Made by a program: the position numbers and the translations under genes. Below are positions 3,412-29,603 of a DNA stretch of 32,000 nucleotides, piece after piece (position 1 is the first letter of the stretch; each line of letters begins with the position of its first letter). The notes beneath the pieces were generated by a model. It worked only from the letters and a program-made list of their open reading frames with translations, was not told the origin of the DNA and did not search any database. The DNA lies in the NCBI RefSeq assembly GCF_000007185.1, contig NC_003551.1:270001-302000 (forward strand), read 5' to 3'. This DNA comes from Methanopyrus kandleri AV19. Its GTDB lineage: Archaea > JAADCQ01 > Methanopyri > Methanopyrales > Methanopyraceae.

Positions 3412-4092
3412 TTGGCCGAAGACGATAAGGTCTTTCGACGCGCCCGTGAGCGCCTGGTGGAGCGGTTGAAGTCCCTGGGTTACATTAGATCGAACCGCGT
3501 GGCCGAGGCCATGCTCAAGGTGCCGCGTCACGAGTTCGTTCCGGAGGATCTCCGCGATCGGGCCTACGTCGACTCGCCCTTACCCATCGGCAGGGGACAG
3601 ACCATCTCGGCCCCGCACATGGTGGCGATCATGACCGAGTTGCTCGACCCACGGCCCGGACACAAGGTGCTCGAGGTGGGGGCGGGTTCGGGGTACCACG
3701 CCGCCGTGGTAGCCGAACTGGTGAAACCCGACGGTCGTGTGATCACGGTCGAGAGGATCCCGGAGCTCGCGGACTTCGCCCGGAATAACCTGAAGAAAAC
3801 CGGATACGACCGTTTCGTGAAGGTGTTGGTGGGGGACGGGACCAAGGGCTACCCGCCCGAAGCCCCGTACGACCGTATTCTGGTGACGGCGGGCGCCCCG
3901 GACGTCCCGGAAAGCCTGCTGGAGCAGCTGAAACCGGGAGGGAAGATGGTCATTCCTGTGGGAGACCGGCACATGCAGGAGCTGTGGTTGGTGGAGAAGA
4001 CCGAGGACGGAGAGATCAGGCGTCGTCGGCACGGTGGATGCGCGTTCGTACCGCTCATAGGGGAGGAGGGGTTCCAGGAACCCGAATCTTGA
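3412..4092 (+). CDS. pcm: protein-L-isoaspartate O-methyltransferase
   Basis: PRHEFVP...[11 protein letters not shown]...[16 protein letters not shown]-binding motif, 226 aa. TTG start preceded by a GGGGGGA SD-like run. Confidence 0.92.
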
Positions 4093-4182
4093 CCCACTCT
4101 AGAGGATATGTACGACCCCGGGGATGAGGAGACCGGCAGGAGGAGACCGAGATGATCGAGGACCCCGATACCCGACCCGGGG

Positions 4183-4878
4183 GTGAAGACCATGGCTAAA
4201 GTCCCTGATCGCGTGCTGAACCGCTCCGAAGTCGCCCAGAACCCACACCGGGCCGTGGGCGAGTACGTCGAGGCCGTGGTGGTGCAGATCAAGGGAGATC
4301 AGGGTATCCAGCTGGAGCTCGGCCTACCGTTCGGCGTGTTCCTACCGGCCGGAGCGATCCGAGCGGCCCTAGACTGGCCCGAACCGGTGGATTTGGAGCT
4401 GCTATTCATACCCGGAGAAGAGCTGATCGTCAAACTCGAGGACCTGGATCTTAAGAACAAGGTAGCCCGTGTATGGATCCCGGACTTCGAGGTGGAACGG
4501 CTCCGAGTGAGGCTCGGAGAGAAGCCGCCTCGCCGCGTGATCGAGATCATGACCAGGGAGGAGTTCTTCGATCTGATCACCGAGGGTCTGAAAACCGCCG
4601 AGATACGGCCGTCCGACCACCGATCGTTCAGGTACCTGGAGCCAGGCGATACGCTCGTGTTCAAGAACTTCAAGGCCGGCACCATGCGCTGCATCGAGAC
4701 GGTGGTCAGGAACGTCGAGAAGGATCTCGACCCCAAGGAGGCCGCCGAGCGGTTCTATCAGGAGGCCGGATTCGAGAGCCCCGAGGAGTGTCTAGAGGGA
4801 CTTAAGGAGATGTACGACGGACTGCCCGAGAAGGTCGATGTAGCCGAGTTCGAGCCGGTGAGGGAGTGGGAAGAATGA
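4183..4878 (+). CDS. hypothetical protein with an ASCH-like C-terminal domain (possible S1/OB-like N-terminus)
   Basis: The C-terminal segment EEFFDLITEGLKTAEIRPSDHRSFRYLEPGDTLVF resembles the ASCH fold signature. Third-position GC bias is good. Confidence 0.6.
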   Translation: MKTMAKVPDRVLNRSEVAQNPHRAVGEYVEAVVVQIKGDQGIQLELGLPFGVFLPAGAIRAALDWPEPVDLELLFIPGEELIVKLEDLDLKNKVARVWIPDFEVERLRVRLGEKPPRRVIEIMTREEFFDLITEGLKTAEIRPSDHRSFRYLEPGDTLVFKNFKAGTMRCIETVVRNVEKDLDPKEAAERFYQEAGFESPEECLEGLKEMYDGLPEKVDVAEFEPVREWEE

Positions 4879-5285
4879 AGGAGGAGGTGGCGAAAAGGAT
4901 CGCATCGGAGGTAGCGCCCCGGGTCGACTCGAAGGTAGTGGACAGGATCTACGTGGCCGTACGTGAGGGTACCGAGGAAGACCCGGAACCCGTCGCGAAG
5001 CTCGTCGAGGAAGGAGAGGAAGTGTACGTGGTCTTCATCGGGCTCGAGGAGTCCGAGGACAGCGGTGCCGATAGAACCCTCGTGAATCCCAGGAACCTCG
5101 AAGCTATGACCGTCGATCTAATGGAGTGGGCGAAGGAGGAATTCGAGGATGTCCACGTGTTAATCGGCGGAGTATCCTTCGTCTGGAAGGGTGGCTCGTT
5201 CCGGGATCTCCTACGACGCTACGGTGAGGATCCGGACGACTTCACGGTGATCGAGGAGAAGGCCGTCGGTATTCCGCCCCGCTGA
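4875..5285 (+). CDS. hypothetical acidic protein
   Basis: The ATG overlaps the upstream stop (ATGA at 4875-4878), which suggests translational coupling. No family recognised. Confidence 0.6.
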   Translation: MKEEVAKRIASEVAPRVDSKVVDRIYVAVREGTEEDPEPVAKLVEEGEEVYVVFIGLEESEDSGADRTLVNPRNLEAMTVDLMEWAKEEFEDVHVLIGGVSFVWKGGSFRDLLRRYGEDPDDFTVIEEKAVGIPPR

Positions 5286-5403: not shown

Positions 5404-6201
5404 TCACAGATCGTAGGCGCGTCCGTCCCGGGCAGCGACGGTCTCAACGCCGGTCTCGTGCTCAATACGTCTCGCTTCGCGCCCGGGGCCTACCCTGAGC
5501 ATCTTCATTCCGAAATGGGTTATGAAAACTTTCCGAAGTTCGGGTGCTTCCGAAACTAGCTCTATCACGTCGTAGGTGCAAAGATGCCCTCTGATCCTGT
5601 CTGATCCCGGTCTCACGACGTTGACTATGGCGACGGTCACGTCCTCTATCACCTCAAAAAAATCTTCACGGAGTTCCGTGTCTCCGGTGTAGTAAATGGA
5701 GTCGTCCTCTGTTTCGAGACGGAACCCGATGCCGGTAGGATCCCCATGGGTAGTCGGTACCGCTTCGAGTGTTCCGGCCGGTAGGTCGATCTCGTCGCCA
5801 GGTTCGAGCGCCACGACTTCTTCCGGTAAGCTTCGGTGGTAAGCGCTGAGGACGGGACCGTAGTCACCGGAGTCATCGGAATACCCTTCCACCGCGGAAA
5901 CGGAACCCACGAACGTGCCGCGACGTTTAGTCCCGCCGCGTGTCATAGCCTCGACGAGCACCTCGGCTTCGGCGTAGTGATCGGGGTGTGAATGGGAGAC
6001 GAACACGGCGTCGACGGCCGTGGTGGGTCGCCGGGAGAGTCGGGTACTCAGGAGACATCCGGGCCCTGGGTCCACGTGGAGATGGAAGTCGGGAAATTCG
6101 AGACGAAAACCTCCGGTTCTGCGTTTCTGAGTGATCATAGCGAAACGTCCGCCGCCTGTACCGGCGAAGAACACTGTGGGGTTGTCCGTCCACCGGTTCA
6201 A
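5404..6201 (-). CDS. metallo-beta-lactamase fold hydrolase
   Basis: HSHPDH zinc-binding motif (VFVSHSHPDHY) with the expected downstream His/Asp residues. 265 aa. Confidence 0.85.
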   Translation of the reverse strand: MNRWTDNPTVFFAGTGGGRFAMITQKRRTGGFRLEFPDFHLHVDPGPGCLLSTRLSRRPTTAVDAVFVSHSHPDHYAEAEVLVEAMTRGGTKRRGTFVGSVSAVEGYSDDSGDYGPVLSAYHRSLPEEVVALEPGDEIDLPAGTLEAVPTTHGDPTGIGFRLETEDDSIYYTGDTELREDFFEVIEDVTVAIVNVVRPGSDRIRGHLCTYDVIELVSEAPELRKVFITHFGMKMLRVGPGREARRIEHETGVETVAARDGRAYDL

Positions 6202-7166
6202 CGTCTCGTTCGGCAGATTGAGTACCCCGTGATCACGGGCAGGTCCTTTCCATCTATCTTCATTACCCCGTCTTTCACCACCACCCTATCTCCCGGCTCC
6301 ACCTCCTCAGGATTACCTTCGACGGCCATGACGATCTCCTCACCGGGACCGGCGACCACGTCCCCCATGTGCCTGGCGTCGACGTCCTCCGCGAGCCTGA
6401 CGACGATCCGCCGCTCGGGGGGAACGTCCTCCACCCCTTTACCCTCTTCCTCGGTGCCGACCTCGACGACCTCGCCGACGACTCCTTCCTTCAAGATATC
6501 GTAACCTTCCCGGATATGCTTGAGCATCTCCTCGGCGAGTCGCCGTCTGTGCTCGCGGAGCCGTTCGATGTCCTCGTCGATGGCCTTCTGGAGGCGGGCT
6601 CGAGCCAGGGGGTCCGCCTTGCCCTTCACCTCGTACGCATCGTACTCGGAGCTCACGAGGATCGTACCGGAGGACACGTACTCGAAGAGGTCATCCAGGG
6701 CGTTCCGGAGGGATTCCAGGTCGGGTTTCCCTCCGAGCTCGGAGTTCACGAACTCGATCACCAGTTCCTTGACGACCTTGGGGCCTTCCACGATCAGGGC
6801 GGGGCCGCCGAAATTCTTGGAGAGGACCTTTTCCCCTTCAAGCTCAACGATAGCGTGGGCGCCGGGAGTCGCGTAAACGCGGCGCCTCCGAACGCCTTTG
6901 GCCGATCTCACGCCGACTTCTCCGGCCACTACCTCGTCGTTCACTTTCCAGACTTTCTTCCTATCGTCGTGGAACTCGAAGTAACCATCCTCGACGTCGA
7001 GATCTTTCAGGAACGATTCCAATTCTTCTTCGGTCCTTATCTCACCGGAGTACAGTTTTTCTTCCACTTTCCGCATCTTTTCCTCGTCCATACGAGCGAC
7101 TAGGGTGCGACGGTCCCCGGCCACGAGAGCACCGTCCGTCCCGGCGTAGGCCAGTACCAGGGTCAA
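6198..7166 (-). CDS. proteasome-beta-like Ntn-hydrolase homolog, probably DUF2121/connectase family
   Basis: The N-terminus M-T-LVLAYAGTDGALVAGDRR mimics a proteasome beta Thr1 start. Length is about 320 aa with an OB-like C-terminus. The family assignment is from memory of the methanogen connectase family. 4-nt overlap with the downstream MBL gene. Confidence 0.55.
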   Translation of the reverse strand: MTLVLAYAGTDGALVAGDRRTLVARMDEEKMRKVEEKLYSGEIRTEEELESFLKDLDVEDGYFEFHDDRKKVWKVNDEVVAGEVGVRSAKGVRRRRVYATPGAHAIVELEGEKVLSKNFGGPALIVEGPKVVKELVIEFVNSELGGKPDLESLRNALDDLFEYVSSGTILVSSEYDAYEVKGKADPLARARLQKAIDEDIERLREHRRRLAEEMLKHIREGYDILKEGVVGEVVEVGTEEEGKGVEDVPPERRIVVRLAEDVDARHMGDVVAGPGEEIVMAVEGNPEEVEPGDRVVVKDGVMKIDGKDLPVITGYSICRTRR

Positions 7167-11157: not shown

Positions 11158-12030
11158 TTGGACCTGCGGATCGCACACGTTTCGGACCTCCATCTCGACG
11201 AATCCCGGGACAAGTCCGTACTGGAGGCGGCGATCGAGCGTGTCAAGGAACTTCATCCCGACGTCGTGGTGGTGTCCGGTGATATCGTGAAGGGGTGGCG
11301 TCCGAGACATTACGGTGAGACCGAGCGAATATTCCGGGCCCTGGATGTTGGCAAGCTACTGGCGGTCGTACCGGACAACCACGACGAGATGCGTGGGGGT
11401 GAGGTGGTTTTCAGGAAACACCCGTATTTTAGGAGAAAGTACAGGGAGTTCACCGTGAAAAGCCCCTCGTTCGGGGAGCTGTTGATGTACCCCATAATCC
11501 TAGAGGGAGACGGACTCTGCGTGATCGCGCTCGACTCCACCGAAGCGGACCGCAGTGACGGGGAGGTAGGGCTGGACCAGCTGCTCAGAGCCGAGGAGCT
11601 GATACGCGAGATCGAGCCGGAGTTCATCGTGCTCACGATGCATCACCACGTGACACCGTTCCCGGGCTTGATCGACGTGTCGACGGTCCTCGACGCCGGT
11701 AACCTCAGGGAGTTCTGCGTGGCCAACGGTGTGGACCTGGTGCTGGTGGGTCACAAACACATCCCTCGGGTCGACTACTTCGCCTCCAAAGAAGGAGGTT
11801 GTGCCGTCTCGCACGCGGGCACGCTGTGCCCGGAGGTCGCCCGTTATGTACCGCCGGCGTTCAACGTGGTGGACGTCGAGCGGGGGGAGGTAGTGGTGCA
11901 GGTCCTTGAGTACCGAGAAGGCGAGTTCAGCGAACCGAAGCTGATGGGACGTTTCAGGATCGAGGGGGAACATCTGCGTCCGGTAGAACTCGGGTACGAC
12001 CCATCCAAAGCTTGGATGAGGGGCTACTGA
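11158..12030 (+). CDS. calcineurin-like metallophosphoesterase
   Basis: N-terminal RIAHVSDLHLD, GDIV, and GHKH motifs. Confidence 0.85.
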   Translation: MDLRIAHVSDLHLDESRDKSVLEAAIERVKELHPDVVVVSGDIVKGWRPRHYGETERIFRALDVGKLLAVVPDNHDEMRGGEVVFRKHPYFRRKYREFTVKSPSFGELLMYPIILEGDGLCVIALDSTEADRSDGEVGLDQLLRAEELIREIEPEFIVLTMHHHVTPFPGLIDVSTVLDAGNLREFCVANGVDLVLVGHKHIPRVDYFASKEGGCAVSHAGTLCPEVARYVPPAFNVVDVERGEVVVQVLEYREGEFSEPKLMGRFRIEGEHLRPVELGYDPSKAWMRGY

Positions 12031-12554
12031 ACTTTAATCTCGCGTTCCTTGAGGTCGACCCAACCTCCGACCCTCGCGGCGGCCTCCACCATGGCCTTCA
12101 CTTCGCGCGGTGGGATCCCCGTTTCCTCACCGATCTCACGACACTCGTCGAACTCCGCCTTCACCGTGACTACCTCCCCCTCCTCGGTCTCCGCGATCTT
12201 GACGCTGACCCTCCATTCACGCTCACCGTACACCACCCGAACGTCCTCGAACCTGGAGGGTACGGAGTACACCCCGTCGGCGTCGAACCTGTCGACGCCC
12301 GTGGACCCGGTTAACACCATGATATCACGGGCGACGTCCTCCGCCACCCGGTCGGGATCCTCACCACCGTCCACTAAAACCACCAGGACGTGTCCGGGCC
12401 GGTTCTTCTTCGTCACACACGGGACCGCGTGACACGCGAGTACTTCCTCGCGCTCGATCAGCTTTTGAATCGCGTCGCCCAGCACCTCGCCGTCCCGATC
12501 GTCCAATACCGTAACCAGGAACATCAAGTGTGAAGGCTCGTAGTCCAACCCCAT
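12024..12554 (-). CDS. LarC-family (DUF111) C-terminal domain protein, stand-alone
   Basis: VLDDRDGEVLG..., KKNRPG, TGSTGVDRF, VKAEFDECREIGEETGIPPREV all match the C-terminal half of nickel-pincer cofactor LarC proteins. No N-terminal half is adjacent. Confidence 0.7.
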   Translation of the reverse strand: MGLDYEPSHLMFLVTVLDDRDGEVLGDAIQKLIEREEVLACHAVPCVTKKNRPGHVLVVLVDGGEDPDRVAEDVARDIMVLTGSTGVDRFDADGVYSVPSRFEDVRVVYGEREWRVSVKIAETEEGEVVTVKAEFDECREIGEETGIPPREVKAMVEAAARVGGWVDLKEREIKVQ

Positions 12555-12581: not shown

Positions 12582-13844
12582 ATGGACGAGTACCTCCGGT
12601 TCCTACAGATGCTGGTGTTATCGGCCGCGGTAGGGATGGTAGTGGGACTCGAGCGCGAGCACGCTCACATCGCGCGTCGGATCGCGGGCTTCAGGACGTT
12701 CACTTTAATCGGTGTGCTCGGAGGACTCACCGCGTACTTCTACGAGTTGGGATGCGTCCCCATAGCCACGGTGACGTCGGTGGGAGCCGCCGCGCTGGCC
12801 GTGACGATGTACGTCATGCGGGTGTACCAGCGTCGATTGTTGGGTATAGTCACACCGTTGGCGCTGCTGGCCACGTTCGCCGCGGGCGCGTTGGTCGGAA
12901 TGGAGAGGTTCAAGGAAGGGGCCACTCTAGCGATCGCGACGGCCGTAGTACTCCTCTCCCGGGCGAGGATCCATCCCGTCCTGAGGAGGTTGTCCGACAG
13001 GGACGTGTTGGACGCCCTAACGGTGTTCTCGCTGGCCGCACTGGTCTATCCGCTCTGCCCACCCGGTCCCGTGGACCCTTGGGGCGTTCTGAACCTGAGG
13101 AGGGTGTTGGAGATCGTCCTGCTGGTGCTCGCGGTGACGGCACTCGGGTACCTGGGAGTTCGGATGTCCGTCAGGGGAGGGGTACTGACGACGTCCTTGG
13201 TCGGGGGTTTCGTCAGCAGCTCCGCCACCACCGCGACCGTCGTGGCGAGGTTCAGAGAGCTTCCTTGGGTGCCCGCCGCCGTGGTGCCCGCCGCGACCTC
13301 CGTCGCGATCATACGCAACATGATCCTGGTCGCCGCCGTCTCGAGGAACCTAGCCGTGGTGAAGAAGGTGGCTTGCGTAGCGATCCCCGCGGCCATAGCC
13401 GGGTTCGCTGTCGCCGTCTACGAGTCGGGTCGCGCGGAAGTCGACGAGGAGGATCTCCGACGGGTCGTTCGAGGTCGGATGCGGTCTCCCCTCTCCCTGA
13501 AACCCGCGGTGAAGCTAGGTCTCCTCATCTCGGGATTCTCGATGACCCTGAAGATAGGACAGCTGTTCGCGGGGAAAGCCGGTCTGGTCGTCGGTGCCGT
13601 AGTCGGTTCGTTAGCCAGCAGCAACGCGATGAGCCTGAGCCTCGCCTATATGGTGAATTCAGGTACCCTCTCCTCCTCGACCGCGGGCATACTGATCGCA
13701 CTGTCCTCGCTGGAATCCATACTCGTGAAGTACCTATGGACGGCCGTGTTCGGTAAGAGGGAGGTCCTCGAGCGAACGTGGCGTACGCTCCTACCACCCA
13801 CGATCGCGGGGATAGCGGGGTTCGGGGTAGTGCTCGCGGGTTAG
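12582..13844 (+). CDS. MgtC/SapB-like N-terminal domain + DUF4010-type polytopic membrane protein
   Basis: VGLEREHA...AGFRTFTLIGVLGG signature. About 10 hydrophobic segments. Confidence 0.78.
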   Translation: MDEYLRFLQMLVLSAAVGMVVGLEREHAHIARRIAGFRTFTLIGVLGGLTAYFYELGCVPIATVTSVGAAALAVTMYVMRVYQRRLLGIVTPLALLATFAAGALVGMERFKEGATLAIATAVVLLSRARIHPVLRRLSDRDVLDALTVFSLAALVYPLCPPGPVDPWGVLNLRRVLEIVLLVLAVTALGYLGVRMSVRGGVLTTSLVGGFVSSSATTATVVARFRELPWVPAAVVPAATSVAIIRNMILVAAVSRNLAVVKKVACVAIPAAIAGFAVAVYESGRAEVDEEDLRRVVRGRMRSPLSLKPAVKLGLLISGFSMTLKIGQLFAGKAGLVVGAVVGSLASSNAMSLSLAYMVNSGTLSSSTAGILIALSSLESILVKYLWTAVFGKREVLERTWRTLLPPTIAGIAGFGVVLAG

Positions 13845-15190
13845 GTCAGCTTCTTCAACTTGGCCACGAAGAACCCGGTAGTACCGTGGACGTGCGGCCA
13901 CATCCGACCAGCTTCCAAACTCGACGAGACTCCGTCGACCCGTAAGGGCGGGTGTAAGAACTCGAACTCCGAGCGGACGTCTACGGGACGCAAGCGATCC
14001 CGCTTGATCGCCTCGGACACGACGAGCTCGTTCTCCTCGGGCGTGATAGTGCAGGTCGAGTACACAAGCACACCTCCCGGTTTGAGCAGTCGGGCCGCCG
14101 CGCGGATGAGCTGACGCTGCTTCAGTGCCAACTCTCGGATGTCTCGGGGTCCGATCTTCCACTTGACGTCGGGGTCGCTCCGGAGCGTTCCGAGGCTGGA
14201 GCACGGAGGGTCCAACAGCACCCGGTCGAACTTACCCACGTACCGCGGGTTCCTACCCAACCTGCGGACGTCCGCGCGCAGGACCTCGATGTTCTCGAAC
14301 ACCATCCGTTCCGCGAACCGTTCCAGCCTACGGAGTCGTACCCTGCTGACGTCGACGGCGAGGATCTCCGCTTCATCCTCCGTCAGCTGGGCTATGTGCG
14401 TGGTCTTACCGCCGGGTGCGGCACACAGGTCGGCGATCCTCTCCCCGGGTTGCGGGTTCAGTATCTCGGTCACCAGCGCCGCCGCCTCGTCCTGAGGTAC
14501 GATGTGTCCTTCCCGCCAGCACTCCAGCTCCTCCAGTCGCAGCGGTTGCCCCTTCTTCACCCGGATGCAGTAGTCGACGTACTCCCCGCGCTCCACCTCG
14601 AAGCCGTGCTCTTCGAACTCGCGGAGGACGTCCTCGACGTCCGCCGCGGTCGTGTTCACGCGGAACGTGTAGTACTCCGGCGGCTCGTTGTGTACCTCCA
14701 TGAGCTCCTTGAGTTCGTCCTCGTCGAGGAGGGCACCGAACTTCTCGACGAACCACCGTGGGTGGTGGTATTCGAGGCACAGCCGGTCGATCTCGTCCTC
14801 CGGCTCCGGCCGCTCGTACTCCTCCAGGTCCGCGACGACCCCGTGGACGCGGCGGTGGTTCAGTCCGAGCTCCTTGGCCGCCCGGGTCGCGGAGTCCGTC
14901 ACCGGTGCCGGGTGTTTACCCTCGTAGAGGACCTCGTTCGCGGCTACCATCACGAGGGCGCGCTCCAACGGTGGGAGCTCGGACCTCGAGACGTCCTCGA
15001 CCACGCGCTCGAGCGTCCCGTAGCGGCGGAGTACGTCGTACACCATGCTCCGCGTCACGGACTGCGTCTTGTCGTCGTACTCGGACAGCGTCTTCCTGAG
15101 AACGTACTGGATGGGGTACGACTTAGTCCTCATGACCTCGATCAGCGACTTCGCCGCCAGCGCGTAACACCGCGCCCAGAACTCCGTCAA
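13841..15190 (-). CDS. NOL1/NOP2/Sun-family RNA cytosine-C5 methyltransferase
   Basis: DLCAAPGGKT, LLDPPCSSLGT, VYSTCTITPEENE motifs. TTG start with GGGGGTGA SD overlapping the upstream stop. Confidence 0.92.
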   Translation of the reverse strand: MTEFWARCYALAAKSLIEVMRTKSYPIQYVLRKTLSEYDDKTQSVTRSMVYDVLRRYGTLERVVEDVSRSELPPLERALVMVAANEVLYEGKHPAPVTDSATRAAKELGLNHRRVHGVVADLEEYERPEPEDEIDRLCLEYHHPRWFVEKFGALLDEDELKELMEVHNEPPEYYTFRVNTTAADVEDVLREFEEHGFEVERGEYVDYCIRVKKGQPLRLEELECWREGHIVPQDEAAALVTEILNPQPGERIADLCAAPGGKTTHIAQLTEDEAEILAVDVSRVRLRRLERFAERMVFENIEVLRADVRRLGRNPRYVGKFDRVLLDPPCSSLGTLRSDPDVKWKIGPRDIRELALKQRQLIRAAARLLKPGGVLVYSTCTITPEENELVVSEAIKRDRLRPVDVRSEFEFLHPPLRVDGVSSSLEAGRMWPHVHGTTGFFVAKLKKLT

Positions 15191-15196
15191 CTCCCG

Positions 15197-15634
15197 TCAC
15201 CCCCGGACCACGATCGTGTTTCCGCCCCTCCTCTTCGCCTCCCGGAGCGCCTCGAGGGCACGACGGACCGCCGGCGACTCGGCCTCCCGGAACGAGCGGC
15301 GGTCGCTGGGCGCCGGACCCACGCCCACACCGAGGCTGATCGTGACCTCGCCTTTGAACTCTCTTTCGAAACGTCTACGTATCCGTTCACATTCTTCGAG
15401 TATTTCGTCTAAGAACGCGTCACCGCCTGGGATCTCGACGACGAACTCCTCGGTACCGCGCTCCCGGTCCGGTCCCTTGACGGCCACGGCGCCCGGAAAC
15501 TTCGTCAGAAACCGCTCAACCAGCTCCGTGAGAAGGCCTGTGGCGGGGTTAGGAGAGTACTCCGGCCAACCCCTCTCCTCGACCACCTCCCCGAACCGGT
15601 CCAGGTCGCCCGCCACGGCCACGCTCCTCAGCAC
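15197..15634 (-). CDS. minimal GGDEF-like nucleotidyl-cyclase (palm) domain protein, GTEEF variant
   Basis: The 146-aa core aligns by eye to the GGDEF domain: GDLDRFG (DxDxF), RGTEEFVVEIP (compare RYGGEEFVVIMP of PleD), VTISLGVG, ALREAKRRGGNTIVV. The ORF-track N-terminal extension to 16084 overlaps serA and is Arg/Gly junk. GTG 15634 lies 1 nt after the serA stop codon (15628-15630). Confidence 0.7.
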   Translation of the reverse strand: MLRSVAVAGDLDRFGEVVEERGWPEYSPNPATGLLTELVERFLTKFPGAVAVKGPDRERGTEEFVVEIPGGDAFLDEILEECERIRRRFEREFKGEVTISLGVGVGPAPSDRRSFREAESPAVRRALEALREAKRRGGNTIVVRG

Positions 15635-17196
15635 CTGACCAGCTCCACCCGGCGGACCGGTTCGACCTCGTCGATGGCCCGCAGGCACTCCTCGGGCGGC
15701 TCCTCGTCCATCCGTATGACCATGATCGCCTCGCCGCCGCGCTCCCGGCGTCCTACCTCCATCGCGGCCACGTTCACGCGGTGCTCGCCCAGGATTATCC
15801 CGACCTCCCCGATGACCCCCGGCCTGTCCACGTGCCACACGAAGAGCGTCGGACCGCTGAGCTTGAACCGTACCTCGTACCCGTTCACCGACGTCAGGTA
15901 CACCCGATCCTCGACCAGCTCGCCCCTGAGCGAGATCTCGTCCTCGTCCGAGCGGACGACCACCTCCACCTCTCCTCCCTCGAGCTCGTCCGAGACCGTG
16001 AACTCGAACTCGATCCCCCTCCGCTCGGCGACGTCTACAGCGTTGACCATGGTGACGGGCTCCGTCAACACTCGGTCCAGACACCCTTTCAGGACGGCCC
16101 GCTTCAGCGCCTCCTTTTCACGGTCCTCGAGCTCACCACCCACCTTAACCTGTACCCACCTCAGGCGCTCCTCGAGTACCTGGGCGGCGGCGTCGGCCAG
16201 CCTTTCACCGACCTCCATCAGCTCCCTCACGTCGTCCGGCACACCGGCCAACGGCAGGTTGACCACGTTCTCCGGGATCTCGCCCTTCAACACCCTCTCG
16301 ATCTCGCGGGCTACGATCAGACCCGCGGCCCGCTGCGCCTCGCCGGTCGAACCGCCGATGTGCGGCGTGAGGACCACGTTATCCAGCTCGTACAGCGGGT
16401 GGTCCTCACCGGGTGGCTCCTCGGCGAACACGTCGAGGGCGGCGCCCGCGATCCAGCCCTCCTTCAGCGCCTTGATCAGCGCCTCCTCGTCCACGATCTT
16501 ACCGCGCGCGCAGTTGACCAGGAACGCCGAGCTCTTCATCCGCTTCAGCTCCTCCTCGCCGATCATCCCCTCCGTCTCCTCGGTCAGGGGCACGTGGATC
16601 GAGACGACGTCAGCGCGCTCCAGCAGCTCCTCGAGCTCGTCGACGAGCTCCACCCCGAGCTCCTCCGCCACCTTCTCCGGTATGTACGGGTCGTACGCTG
16701 TCACCTCCATCTCGAACGCCTTCGCACGCTTGGCCACCTGCTGACCTATCCTACCCAGTCCTATGAGACCCAACGTCTTTCCGGCCAGCTCGACGCCCAT
16801 GAACCGCTTCCTGTCCCACTCCCCGCGGCGCACCGACCTGTCCGCCTGCGGTATCTTTCGGGCCAACGCCAGGATGAGACCCATCGTGTGCTCGGCTACC
16901 GAGATCGAGCTCGACTCGGGCGCGTTGACGACGATGATACCGCGTTCCGTCGCGGCCTTCACGTCGATGTTGTCGACGCCCACACCCGCCCGGGCGATGA
17001 CCTTGAGATTCTTAGCCTCCTCGATCAGCTCCCTCGTCACCCGCGTCCCGCTCCTCACCACCCAGGCGTCCGCGTCCCGCACGTGCTCACGGATCTCCTC
17101 CTCGTCGGCGTCCTCCAGCACGACGACCTCTCCGAGCTCCTCGAGCTTCCTCAGCGCGTCCTCGTGGATAGGGTCCGTAACCAGAATCTTGGCCAC
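15628..17196 (-). CDS. serA: D-3-phosphoglycerate dehydrogenase with C-terminal ACT domain
   Basis: KILVTDPI..., [12 protein letters not shown] motif, and the full-length long-form layout. GTG 17196 chosen because of the GGGGGTG SD. The ORF track extends to 17313. Confidence 0.92.
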
Positions 17197-17229
17197 GGAG
17201 ACACCCCCGGCCGGGCACGGATAGCCCCG

Positions 17230-17237
17230 AAAATATG
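17230..17237 (-). promoter_or_regulatory. candidate TATA box for serA
   Basis: CATATTTT on the minus strand, about 38 nt upstream of GTG 17196. Confidence 0.35.
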
Positions 17238-17325
17238 TTGACTGGGTCTCCTCCGGGGCCGGCCCCGTCGCCCCGATGGTGCCAACGGGTCCGCCAAGGT
17301 CGACGTGAAGCACCTGACGAGGCGC

Positions 17326-18045
17326 TCACTGTACGTGTCTCAGCTTCCAGCGTTCTAATTCGAGTTTCACGTCGGGGATCTCGTGTTTCCCGTCGAGGGA
17401 TTTCCTACGGTGACGGATCACCTTCCTCAAGTGAGCGGAGTAATGCGCGGGCCAGCCTCCGAGGGTTCTGATCGCGAAGGATTCGAGTCGATCGGGGAGT
17501 TCCTCTAACACGTCCCGGATCCTGGGTGATTCGGAGGGTCGGGCGTCGAACGTCAGCGCGAGCCCTCGTGCGAGTACTCGCCTTGCCCTCTTGTATGGGA
17601 GGTCCGAAACCCCGGTCAGGAGGGTCTTGAGTACCGAGCGGAGGTTGCGCATCAAGTGCCGGGCGAGCTCGAGGACCTCGTTCCGGTCCAGGGAGACGAG
17701 CCATTCGACGAACCGAACACTCTCGTTCTCGGGTTTGCCCAGATAAAGGGTCCTACCGTGCTTGAACTTCGAGTCCCTCCGCCACCTCGCGACGTAGTAC
17801 GGACCGCAGGTACTCCCGCTCACCGTCCGGTAGGTCACCTCGAGGCTCGGCTTCCTCTTCCTCCGATGGACTTCCCTCAGGACTCGGAGTGCCCGAATCC
17901 TCTCGACCGGGTCGGAGGGTATCGGGACGTGCGACTCGATCAACCCCGGTACGCGATCCAGGGTAGTGGCCCCAGATTGTATGGAGGCAGGGGAAAGGCA
18001 GCCTTCCAGGATAAAAGTCTTGCCGTTCGGAAGTCGTGACGTCAA
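17326..18045 (-). CDS. hypothetical basic protein with GPYYVARWR...YLGK motif
   Basis: ORF with coding bias and a TTG start. The motif is reminiscent of the GPYWY...YxGK element found in archaeal mobile-element-associated proteins (from memory, unverified). Confidence 0.55.
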   Translation of the reverse strand: MTSRLPNGKTFILEGCLSPASIQSGATTLDRVPGLIESHVPIPSDPVERIRALRVLREVHRRKRKPSLEVTYRTVSGSTCGPYYVARWRRDSKFKHGRTLYLGKPENESVRFVEWLVSLDRNEVLELARHLMRNLRSVLKTLLTGVSDLPYKRARRVLARGLALTFDARPSESPRIRDVLEELPDRLESFAIRTLGGWPAHYSAHLRKVIRHRRKSLDGKHEIPDVKLELERWKLRHVQ

Positions 18046-18088: not shown

Positions 18089-19126
18089 CTAGGCGTCGTT
18101 TCGACGGCCCGCCAGCGGCACAGGTAGTAGTGGCAGTACCCAGAACGGGATCTTCGACGTCCCGCTCTCCCCATTCCTCTCCGGGAACAGGAACTCGACG
18201 TTCGGGTGCTCGCCCATCACTTTCTGGAGCTCCTTCTCGCTAGCACCCTGGCTGTACATCCCGATCACCTTCTCGACGAACCGTACCAGCGGATCGTCGT
18301 GTGATAGTTGGAAGCCTACCCAGAGGGGTTCCGCGCCGGAACGCGTGCGCAGTAAGTCCCCGGAGAACCCCTCGATCCCCTCACCTGGCGGCGTACCCCA
18401 CCTCGCCCTTAGCTCGCGCAGCTTCGAGACCAGCTCCGAGTCCGTACTCTCCCGACGGTCGACGAGGATCCTACCCTTCCTGAGGTCGAACGTCGCGTCG
18501 ATGACGAGCGCCAGGTCCTCGACCCCCTCCGGGAACCCCAGGATCCTCATGACCACCCGATCCGAGTACACCTCGTACTCGACGTCCACCGGATCGAACG
18601 ATCCCAAACCCTCCTCGTCGACCACCCGACCCCCGGCGCTCAAAGTGAGAACGTACTCGCACCGCGCCGGAGCCCCTAGCGCGGGGACGTTGGTGACGTA
18701 CCCGAAGCTACACACGTGGTCCCCGACCACGACGTCCAAGCCCAAGTTCGCCGAGGAACCCTCCGTCAACGGGCACTGGTTCACGCTCGCGATCACCGCC
18801 GGACCCTCCAAACGCTCCTCCACAGCGACGGGCCTCCCGCACGTCAGCGGGAGTACCACCCGAACGCGTCCCGGTTCGACCGACTCCTGCACCCTCGAGA
18901 ACGCGAACAGGTTCTCCTTGGGTAGGTAGATCACGTACCCCGCCGACTCCGAGTACTGCACGACGTCCACGATCACGTGTGGGTCGTCTTTCCACTTGGG
19001 TAGGACCCGTTTCTGGAAGTACTCGTGTAGGAATTCCAGGTCCTTCGAGAGGCTACCCTGGATTAACGGTTCTCCTGAGGCCGGGGTTAGTGCTAGAACT
19101 AGTCCTAGGACGAGGTAGGGGAGCAA
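18089..19126 (-). CDS. exported orphan protein with signal peptide and C-terminal hydrophobic anchor
   Basis: N-terminal MLPYLVLGLVLALTPASG. C-terminal IPFWVLPLLPVPLAGRRNDA. Confidence 0.7.
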   Translation of the reverse strand: MLPYLVLGLVLALTPASGEPLIQGSLSKDLEFLHEYFQKRVLPKWKDDPHVIVDVVQYSESAGYVIYLPKENLFAFSRVQESVEPGRVRVVLPLTCGRPVAVEERLEGPAVIASVNQCPLTEGSSANLGLDVVVGDHVCSFGYVTNVPALGAPARCEYVLTLSAGGRVVDEEGLGSFDPVDVEYEVYSDRVVMRILGFPEGVEDLALVIDATFDLRKGRILVDRRESTDSELVSKLRELRARWGTPPGEGIEGFSGDLLRTRSGAEPLWVGFQLSHDDPLVRFVEKVIGMYSQGASEKELQKVMGEHPNVEFLFPERNGESGTSKIPFWVLPLLPVPLAGRRNDA

Positions 19127-29494: not shown

Positions 29495-29529
29495 ATCGTA
29501 TTGTTATGGGTTACGTAACAATTTCAAAG

Positions 29530-29603
29530 TGGGCCCGCCGGGATTTGAACCCGGGACCACCGGCTCGTCAGGCCGGCGTTCTGCCGGGCTGAACTGCGGG
29601 CCC
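29530..29603 (-). tRNA. tRNA-Val (anticodon GAC), no encoded CCA, C at position 8
   Basis: Hand-folded: GGGCCCG/CGGGCCC acceptor, GTTC/GAAC D stem, CCGGC-CTGACGA-GCCGG anticodon arm, CCGGG-TTCAAAT-CCCGG T arm. Confidence 0.88.

Follow-up and report, generated by a model that had tools for sequence, protein, structure and literature searches.

What does a stand-alone GGDEF-like palm domain do in an archaeon, given that archaea are considered to be essentially devoid of conventional GGDEF signalling? The question is raised by a stretch of 32,000 nucleotides of the Methanopyrus kandleri AV19 genome (NC_003551.1, positions 270,001-302,000; hereafter the window, to whose numbering all positions without a locus number refer). 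An open reading frame (ORF) on its minus strand (15197..15634), with a GTG start and 145 codons followed by a TGA stop, encodes a stand-alone GGDEF-like palm-domain protein of the MK0296 type. The ORF is almost certainly MK0296 of M. kandleri or its exact equivalent, and the named proteins that share its 90% identity cluster are Methanopyrus proteins. A preliminary description of the window had presented this protein as a new observation.

The family has, however, been described before. Galperin 2005 (PMC1183210) regarded MK0296 [Q8TYK1] and APE1864 of Aeropyrum pernix as truncated GGDEF domains and left them out of a census of diguanylate cyclases. Anantharaman, Iyer and Aravind 2010 made MK0296 the type of a small archaeal family. 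They predicted its members to be active since three acidic residues are kept, and unlikely to be signalling proteins since no signalling domains are attached to them. Some members are labelled in databases as 'GGDEF domain-containing protein' or 'nucleotidyl cyclase domain-containing protein'. Because the MK0296 family is found in both papers, the present finding is a rediscovery of a known, published family, and the claim of novelty falls. New here are a distribution that reaches Desulfurococcales, Nezhaarchaeales, Theionarchaea and several Asgard lineages, a structural model, the WxxYxPNxxT and GTEE invariants, the recurrent phosphoesterase, TBP and serA neighbourhoods, and the restriction of the serA overlap to Methanopyri.

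In this study, we place the protein among the palm domains, describe its predicted active site and compare its gene neighbourhoods. We propose, with a probability of roughly 45%, that it condenses nucleoside triphosphates (NTPs) by a two-metal mechanism into a linear or cyclic di- or oligonucleotide with a non-canonical base specificity, and that the product would be turned over by a phosphoesterase. This proposal draws on conserved residues, a modelled fold and gene order.

Relationship to the GGDEF domain

The ORF is a real, conserved protein-coding gene under purifying selection, and its homologues, 135-167 amino acids long, have the start position in common. With the single sequence as query, GGDEF (PF00990) was the best Pfam match (E 0.017, 15.3 bits against a cut-off of 23.8), followed by GGDEF_GdpP (E 0.021), Cas10-Cmr2_palm2 (E 0.066) and GCH_III (E 0.28, 10.9 bits against a cut-off of 21.3, covering profile positions 165-238 only). 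NCBIfam searches gave GGDEF at E 0.002 and TIGR00254 at 17.8 bits, against a threshold of 37.4. The protein consequently stays below the curated GGDEF thresholds (PF00990/TIGR00254); all of these sub-threshold matches lie within the nucleotide-cyclase palm clan, with GGDEF at the top. The best match among PDB sequences was the GGDEF domain of SadC (E 0.013).

Searches with the family as a whole reached further. A profile built from 33 sequences and run against 1.84 billion representatives retrieved only 42 proteins, one of them a canonical bacterial GAF-GGDEF protein, which matched nearly the whole profile at E 6e-4. When the 47-member alignment was compared with this GAF-GGDEF protein by hhalign, a probability of 96.8% was obtained (E 2.5e-10, 126 columns). 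In an hmmsearch of PDB sequences with the family profile, diguanylate cyclases were the only matches at E <= 1e-3, the best being 3ign at E 1.6e-6. An AlphaFold2 model computed from the family alignment (predicted local distance difference test 92, predicted template modelling score 0.87) has the beta-alpha-alpha-beta-beta-alpha-beta-alpha-beta topology of the palm and is missing helix alpha0 and a beta-hairpin insert. In a Foldseek comparison of this model with the PDB, the top 17 structures were GGDEF domains (DosC, PleD, WspR and others; E about 1e-6 to 2e-5, template modelling scores 0.55-0.66). These were followed by Cas10/Csm1 palms (2e-5), a class III adenylyl cyclase (6e-5) and the Panoptes mCpol OptS (9pd0; 2e-4). 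Because the family-profile, hhalign, PDB and Foldseek results agree, the fold assignment is secure: with profile-level homology and the fold order of the palm, the protein is a true but divergent GGDEF homologue, and the GGDEF domain is its nearest relative.

The preliminary description had located a GGDEF-like palm ORF at these positions, where it indeed lies; the strand, which it did not name, is the minus strand, and the length given there, 146 amino acids, has to be corrected to 145 codons plus the stop. All motifs that it quoted are found in the translation, namely DLDRF, RGTEEFVVEIP, VTISLGVG and REAKRRGGNTIVV with AKRRGGN, and the end-to-end resemblance to GGDEF, noted there by eye, proves to be far beyond chance in the hhalign, PDB profile and Foldseek comparisons. 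As to the relatives considered there, Cas10 palms and mCpol, together with class III cyclases, do follow GGDEF, whereas GTP cyclohydrolase III came out as the weakest candidate.

Active-site residues and the base pocket

Residue conservation was assessed in 47 diverse members with 28-90% identity to the query and, separately, in a set of the 33 closest members. Nine residues are invariant in 47/47 sequences (D10, D12, N29, T32, G54, G60, T61, E62 and K134), and L11, F14, G22, Y26, P28 and E63 are nearly so (Y26, P28 and E63 in at least 90%). Most of them fall into four motifs, all encoded on the minus strand. D10-L-D12-R-F14 at the end of strand beta1 (15593..15607) aligns with the DxDxF of GGDEF domains and carries the predicted metal-binding aspartates. 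R59-G60-T61-E62-E63 in the beta2-beta3 hairpin (15446..15460) aligns with the GGEE of diguanylate cyclases and replaces the GG(D/E)EF signature, which is not present as such; position five of the palm signature varies (F, V or A). A133-K134-R-R-G137-G138-N139 (15218..15238) is by alignment the counterpart of the phosphate-binding AKxxGRN motif of GGDEF domains, and all close members have both G137 and G138. The fourth motif, W23-x-x-Y26-x-P28-N29-x-x-T32 (15539..15568), is family-specific; it spans a loop and the start of a helix, is predicted to form the base pocket, and its W23 is invariant among the 33 closest members.

The metal-binding aspartates on strand 1 and an acidic hairpin residue are thus retained (D10, D12 and E62 are invariant), as the preliminary description had expected for orthologues. 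The guanine-specifying residues are not: HMMER and hhalign agree in aligning Val18 with the Asn of FKxxND and the invariant Asn29 with the Asp of 'GD'. The absence of the guanine-contacting Asn and Asp, like that of the N-terminal helix, had been noted there and is borne out by alignments and model. The family also has no RxxD inhibitory site (I-site), and it carries inserts of 6 residues before the hairpin and of 2 residues in the base loop. A retained catalytic core combined with altered guanine-reading positions speaks for a two-metal palm enzyme that is active and whose base pocket has been reshaped.

Two alternatives have to be weighed against these residues. One holds that the protein is a catalytically dead remnant, a truncated GGDEF domain kept as a binding or structural module. 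Its treatment as truncated by Galperin 2005, the non-canonical GTEE signature and a sequence score below the Pfam threshold would suit such a remnant. However, neither the metal ligands nor Lys134 vary among members from Methanopyri, Thermoproteota, Theionarchaea and Asgard archaea that have only 30-50% identity, the model is a complete palm in which, of the helices, only alpha0 is missing, and activity was predicted by Anantharaman et al. 2010, so that we judge a dead remnant to be very improbable.

The other alternative is a protein that binds an NTP and then hydrolyses it or opens its ring, for which GdpP/YybT, with its GGDEF-type ATPase domain, and GTP cyclohydrolase III, with its GGDN palm, would be the precedents. 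The Pfam score for GGDEF_GdpP is on a par with that for GGDEF, GCH_III gives a weak match, ATPase activity has been reported for the GGDEF domain of YybT according to a paper that cites the work, and a monomeric stand-alone domain without a dimerisation module suits a hydrolase better than a cyclase. Against this, both acidic residues of the hairpin, E62 and E63, are kept where GTP cyclohydrolase III has GGDN, the latter enzyme is a two-domain protein of about 250 amino acids, and both the PDB profile search and Foldseek rank active diguanylate cyclases first, not GdpP or GTP cyclohydrolase III. A hydrolase is accordingly quite unlikely, and condensation of NTPs is the activity that we favour for the MK0296-type palm.

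Occurrence among archaea

A scan of one genome per GTDB species yielded 71 loci, 71/71 of them archaeal. They span Methanopyri, Pyrodictiaceae, Desulfurococcaceae, Acidilobaceae, Hyperthermus, Thermodiscus, Staphylothermus, Thermosphaera and Nezhaarchaeales, and they include Theionarchaea as well as one Geoarchaeota and one Thermococci metagenome-assembled genome (MAG). A second sub-branch, with a canonical-looking 'SIGV' in strand 4, comprises 79 clusters at 90% identity and includes proteins assigned by their sources to Odinarchaeota, Heimdallarchaeota, Hodarchaeales, Promethearchaeia and other Asgard archaea. A degenerate-DNA scan of a metagenome collection for the palm family gave no match. 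The features of the MK0296 type, i.e. archaeal origin, a stand-alone domain, the three acidic palm residues and the absence of fusions to signalling domains, are all found in the window protein.

Almost all members are stand-alone proteins of 113-197 amino acids. The exception, P0067 (292 amino acids, encoded on one 6.4-kb metagenomic contig), has an RNase M5-like Toprim domain (Pfam E 6e-7) fused to a palm with RGTEQ. This domain is real, but among 5.8 billion clusters no second Toprim-palm fusion was found and the other loci have no Toprim gene in the vicinity of the palm gene, and we have set the fusion aside as a functional clue.

Gene neighbourhoods

In the window, the palm gene is the middle one of three minus-strand genes arranged head to tail. 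Upstream lies serA (15628..17196, minus strand), which encodes a D-3-phosphoglycerate dehydrogenase of 522 amino acids with an ACT domain (Pfam 2-Hacid_dh, 2-Hacid_dh_C, PGDH_inter and ACT). The palm GTG start (15634-15632) is located upstream of the serA TGA stop (15630-15628), so that the two genes overlap by 7 nucleotides; the junction reads GTGCTGA on the minus strand, with 1 nucleotide between the end of GTG and TGA. The preliminary description had here placed the palm start 1 nucleotide after the serA stop, which misses the overlap. It was right about the other junction, where the palm TGA stop is followed by 6 nucleotides and then by the TTG start (15190) of the methyltransferase gene (GGGGGTGACGGGAGTTG). 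The latter (13841..15190, minus strand) encodes an RNA 5-methylcytosine methyltransferase of the RsmB/F (NOL1/NOP2/Sun) type with a NusB-like N-terminus, matching Methyltr_RsmB-F (E 7.9e-59), the RsmF-B ferredoxin-like domain and NusB in Pfam.

For comparison across archaea, the ORFs of about 85 loci were clustered and representatives annotated. In Methanopyri, serA overlaps the palm gene by 4-7 nucleotides in 7/7 loci. The serA linkage suggested earlier is therefore conserved within this class, but it is absent from about 75 other loci; being restricted to Methanopyri, it was rejected as a general functional clue, and a coupling to core metabolism does not hold as a generalisation. The gene downstream varies even among Methanopyri: it is RsmB/F in the window and in close relatives, and a Na/Ca exchanger gene in a more distant Methanopyri MAG. 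The methyltransferase adjacency that had been pointed out is thus not conserved within the class, although it recurs in two Nezhaarchaeales-type loci, in which RsmB/F directly adjoins the palm gene in divergent orientation. In Pyrodictiaceae, the palm gene is monocistronic and divergent from gdhA, with FeoB downstream. A 342-amino-acid 2-hydroxyacid dehydrogenase is encoded two genes upstream of it, with gdhA in between, and may be a remnant of common ancestry or a coincidence.

Phosphoesterase genes of two kinds recur beside the palm gene. In 6 loci, belonging to three lineages (3/5 Asgard loci examined, 2/2 Theionarchaea and the one Thermococci MAG), the gene immediately next to it in the same orientation encodes a PHP-family phosphoesterase of 186-211 amino acids with intact metal motifs. 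The PHP genes, all on the plus strand, are L082:5502-6137, L083:2531-3106, L080:6203-6763, L075:5396-6001, L077:5396-6001 and L070:5381-6007; in Theionarchaea and the Thermococci MAG the PHP gene is translationally coupled to the palm gene. No PHP homologue was detected in the window, in Desulfurococcales loci or in Methanopyri loci. In Desulfurococcales, a TIGR00024 'SbcD-related' metallophosphoesterase is encoded 1-3 genes from the palm gene in 28 loci, despite inversions and rearrangements. In Desulfurococcaceae and Acidilobaceae the TBP gene also lies 1-3 genes away, in 33 loci, in either orientation and with gaps of 105-300 nucleotides. Examples of this TBP/TIGR00024 neighbourhood, which was seen in loci L016-L078, are L019:4257-5048 (plus strand) and L065:5214-5810 (minus strand). 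The proximity of TBP and TIGR00024 may indicate a functional linkage or a slowly evolving region.

The neighbourhoods bear on a defence role, in which a minimal polymerase of the mCpol (Panoptes) type or a Cas10 derivative would signal to an immune effector. The size of the protein is mCpol-like, and OptS and Cas10 palms are among its structural matches, with Cas10-Cmr2_palm2 among those in Pfam; yet GGDEF outscores Cas10 and mCpol in every comparison. None of the about 85 loci contains CRISPR, CARF, effector or mobile-element genes. The neighbours are housekeeping genes, such as serA, gdhA, TBP and genes for tRNA enzymes, and the family is vertically conserved within orders. An mCpol/Cas10-like defence role is therefore extremely unlikely.

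A further alternative is suggested by neighbours with a part in RNA metabolism. A Thg1-like or terminal nucleotidyltransferase would add nucleotides to the ends of tRNA or rRNA in the course of processing or repair, or adenylylate or guanylylate them, and phosphoesterases would heal the ends. Anantharaman et al. 2010 grouped the palms of Thg1, GGDEF and Cas10 in one clade and considered that some GGDEF proteins could be RNA nucleotidyltransferases. RsmB/F directly adjoins the palm gene in Methanopyrus and in the Nezhaarchaeales-type loci. In one Asgard locus (L079; genes at 3422-5008 and 5558-6388, both plus strand), the archaeosine tRNA-guanine transglycosylase TgtA (arcTGT) overlaps the palm start by 8 nucleotides and MTAP is next, an arrangement absent from two other Asgard loci, and there is also the RNase M5-like Toprim fusion. 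Among the few PDB entries matched by the PHP partner is a 5'-3' exoribonuclease, and PdeM, a ligase-associated nuclease, is a relative of the TIGR00024 phosphoesterase. On the other hand, the protein has only about 145 amino acids and no nucleic-acid-binding extension comparable to the C-terminal 'fingers' of Thg1. Its net charge is near neutral and variable among members (median isoelectric point 7.7), Thg1 structures are missing from the first 50 Foldseek matches, the Toprim fusion has no second example, and each RNA-related neighbour is restricted to its lineage. Action on nucleic-acid ends, the strongest of the alternatives, is therefore rather unlikely. If it were true, the family would be a missing link that has been proposed between Thg1, Cas10 and GGDEF palms. 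Charge as such was discarded as a sign of nucleic-acid binding, because isoelectric points range inconsistently from 4.9 to 9.7.

A link to pterin or 7-deazaguanine metabolism was likewise considered and rejected. QueD/PTPS genes occur near the palm gene in L003 and L036, and FolE, a weakly TGT-like protein and a radical-SAM gene lie downstream of it in Pyrodictiaceae; these neighbours are restricted to their lineages, and a radical-SAM neighbour labelled 'HMPTM' is the tetraether lipid synthase Tes. The Pyrodictiaceae region deserves mention in its own right. A 380-amino-acid protein without Pfam match (L005:6467-7612, minus strand, and orthologues; 12 Pyrodictiaceae loci) has a DSGGYQ-like motif and a weak match to TgtA (E 2e-4). 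Its gene adjoins those of a 273-amino-acid radical-SAM protein, a DUF89 phosphatase, a pyrophosphatase and FolE, and the region may represent a gene cluster, TGT-like or for 7-deazaguanine, that is as yet uncharacterised.

Some further features of the window (GC content 61.4%) were recorded, the following ORFs being on the minus strand unless stated otherwise. The likely GTG start of serA is at 17196, in keeping with Methanopyri orthologues of 522 amino acids; the mechanically defined ORF is 39 codons longer upstream (17197-17313) than this orthologue-supported start (VAKILVTD), ahead of which an ATATTTT element and a GGGGGTG Shine-Dalgarno-like motif are seen. Directly upstream of serA, a 239-amino-acid ORF (17329-18045) matches DUF1678 (E 2e-102). 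To our knowledge, DUF1678 is a Methanopyrus-specific family. A 345-amino-acid ORF at 18092-19126 has no Pfam match at E <= 1e-3. Downstream of the methyltransferase gene, an MgtC/DUF4010 membrane protein is encoded at 12582-13841 on the plus strand, divergent from a 176-amino-acid ORF (12027-12554) that matches only the C-terminal third of a nickel-insertion (LarC-type) family. The sole Rfam/ARAGORN matches in the window are tRNA-Thr(TGT) at 2615-2692 and tRNA-Val(GAC) at 29529-29603, both on the minus strand.

Discussion

The MK0296 family is the closest archaeal relative of the GGDEF domain, with the catalytic core intact, and is present in hyperthermophilic Thermoproteota as well as in Methanopyri and a number of Asgard lineages. 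By the reading that we prefer, NTP condensation, the protein would be a two-metal-ion nucleotidyltransferase, likely a homodimer by analogy with GGDEF and mCpol enzymes. It would link two NTPs through the 3'-OH of the first and the alpha-phosphate of the second, with a base specificity unlike that of canonical synthases of cyclic di-GMP (c-di-GMP), and the product would be a linear or cyclic di- or oligonucleotide. In other lineages, turnover by the neighbouring phosphoesterase is plausible, that is by the PHP protein in Asgard archaea, Theionarchaea and the one Thermococci MAG, or by TIGR00024 in Desulfurococcales. In Methanopyri, the palm gene is probably coupled translationally to serA and carried on a serA-MK0296-rsmB transcript. 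Such coupling and a shared transcript would make it a constitutive housekeeping gene rather than one for a sensor-gated signalling enzyme or for defence.

Several observations weigh against this proposal. The second Gly of GG(D/E)EF, which cyclases normally require for activity, is replaced by an invariant Thr (G-T-E-E). Where AKxxGRN has its phosphate-binding Arg, this family has a Gly, and a dimerisation helix or domain is lacking. With regard to gene order, no phosphoesterase is found near the palm gene in Methanopyri or Pyrodictiaceae loci; the association in Desulfurococcales may partly reflect inherited synteny, and the phosphoesterase association as such was noticed post hoc. TBP, RsmB/F, TgtA and the single Toprim fusion lean as much to RNA and information processing as to signalling, and there is no obvious candidate for a receptor or effector that would respond to a nucleotide product. 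Furthermore, full-text literature searches (MK0296, APE1864, UniProt accessions, GGDEF with Pyrodictium) retrieved no experimental study.

Beyond the enzyme itself, the family together with its phosphoesterases might form a housekeeping nucleotide-messenger or oligonucleotide system, spanning Asgard archaea, TACK archaea and Methanopyri, with a product other than c-di-GMP; we consider a system of this breadth unlikely. If the pair of synthase and degrading enzyme were true, archaea would have in it their equivalent of the cyclic-dinucleotide signalling of bacteria, and if a nucleotide product is made at all, a nucleotide metabolite or messenger of archaea has so far been overlooked. The protein, small and thermostable, is carried by cultured Methanopyrus, Pyrodictium and Aeropyrum.

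Concerning known systems, the window ORF belongs to the MK0296-type family as defined by Anantharaman et al. 2010, from which it differs in nothing of kind and of which APE1864 is another named member. With the bacterial GGDEF cyclases PleD, WspR and DosC it shares the order of the fold, the DxDxF of strand 1, the acidic pair of the hairpin and the AKxxG-N motif. In contrast to them, the palm family has G-T-E-E, no alpha0, no sensor or dimerisation domain and no RxxD I-site, and it is confined to archaea. mCpol/OptS and Cas10 palm 2 share with it the palm clade and a presumed condensation of NTPs, and a small palm-only architecture is common to the family and mCpol; the family nevertheless is not one of them, as it has no GGDD motif, a housekeeping context and a similarity that is weaker than that to GGDEF. 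GTP cyclohydrolase III (ArfA, PF05165) is likewise an archaeal enzyme of the palm clade, with a purine NTP substrate as presumed common ground. The MK0296-type protein stands apart from it as well, with GTEE instead of GGDN and one domain of about 145 amino acids instead of about 250.

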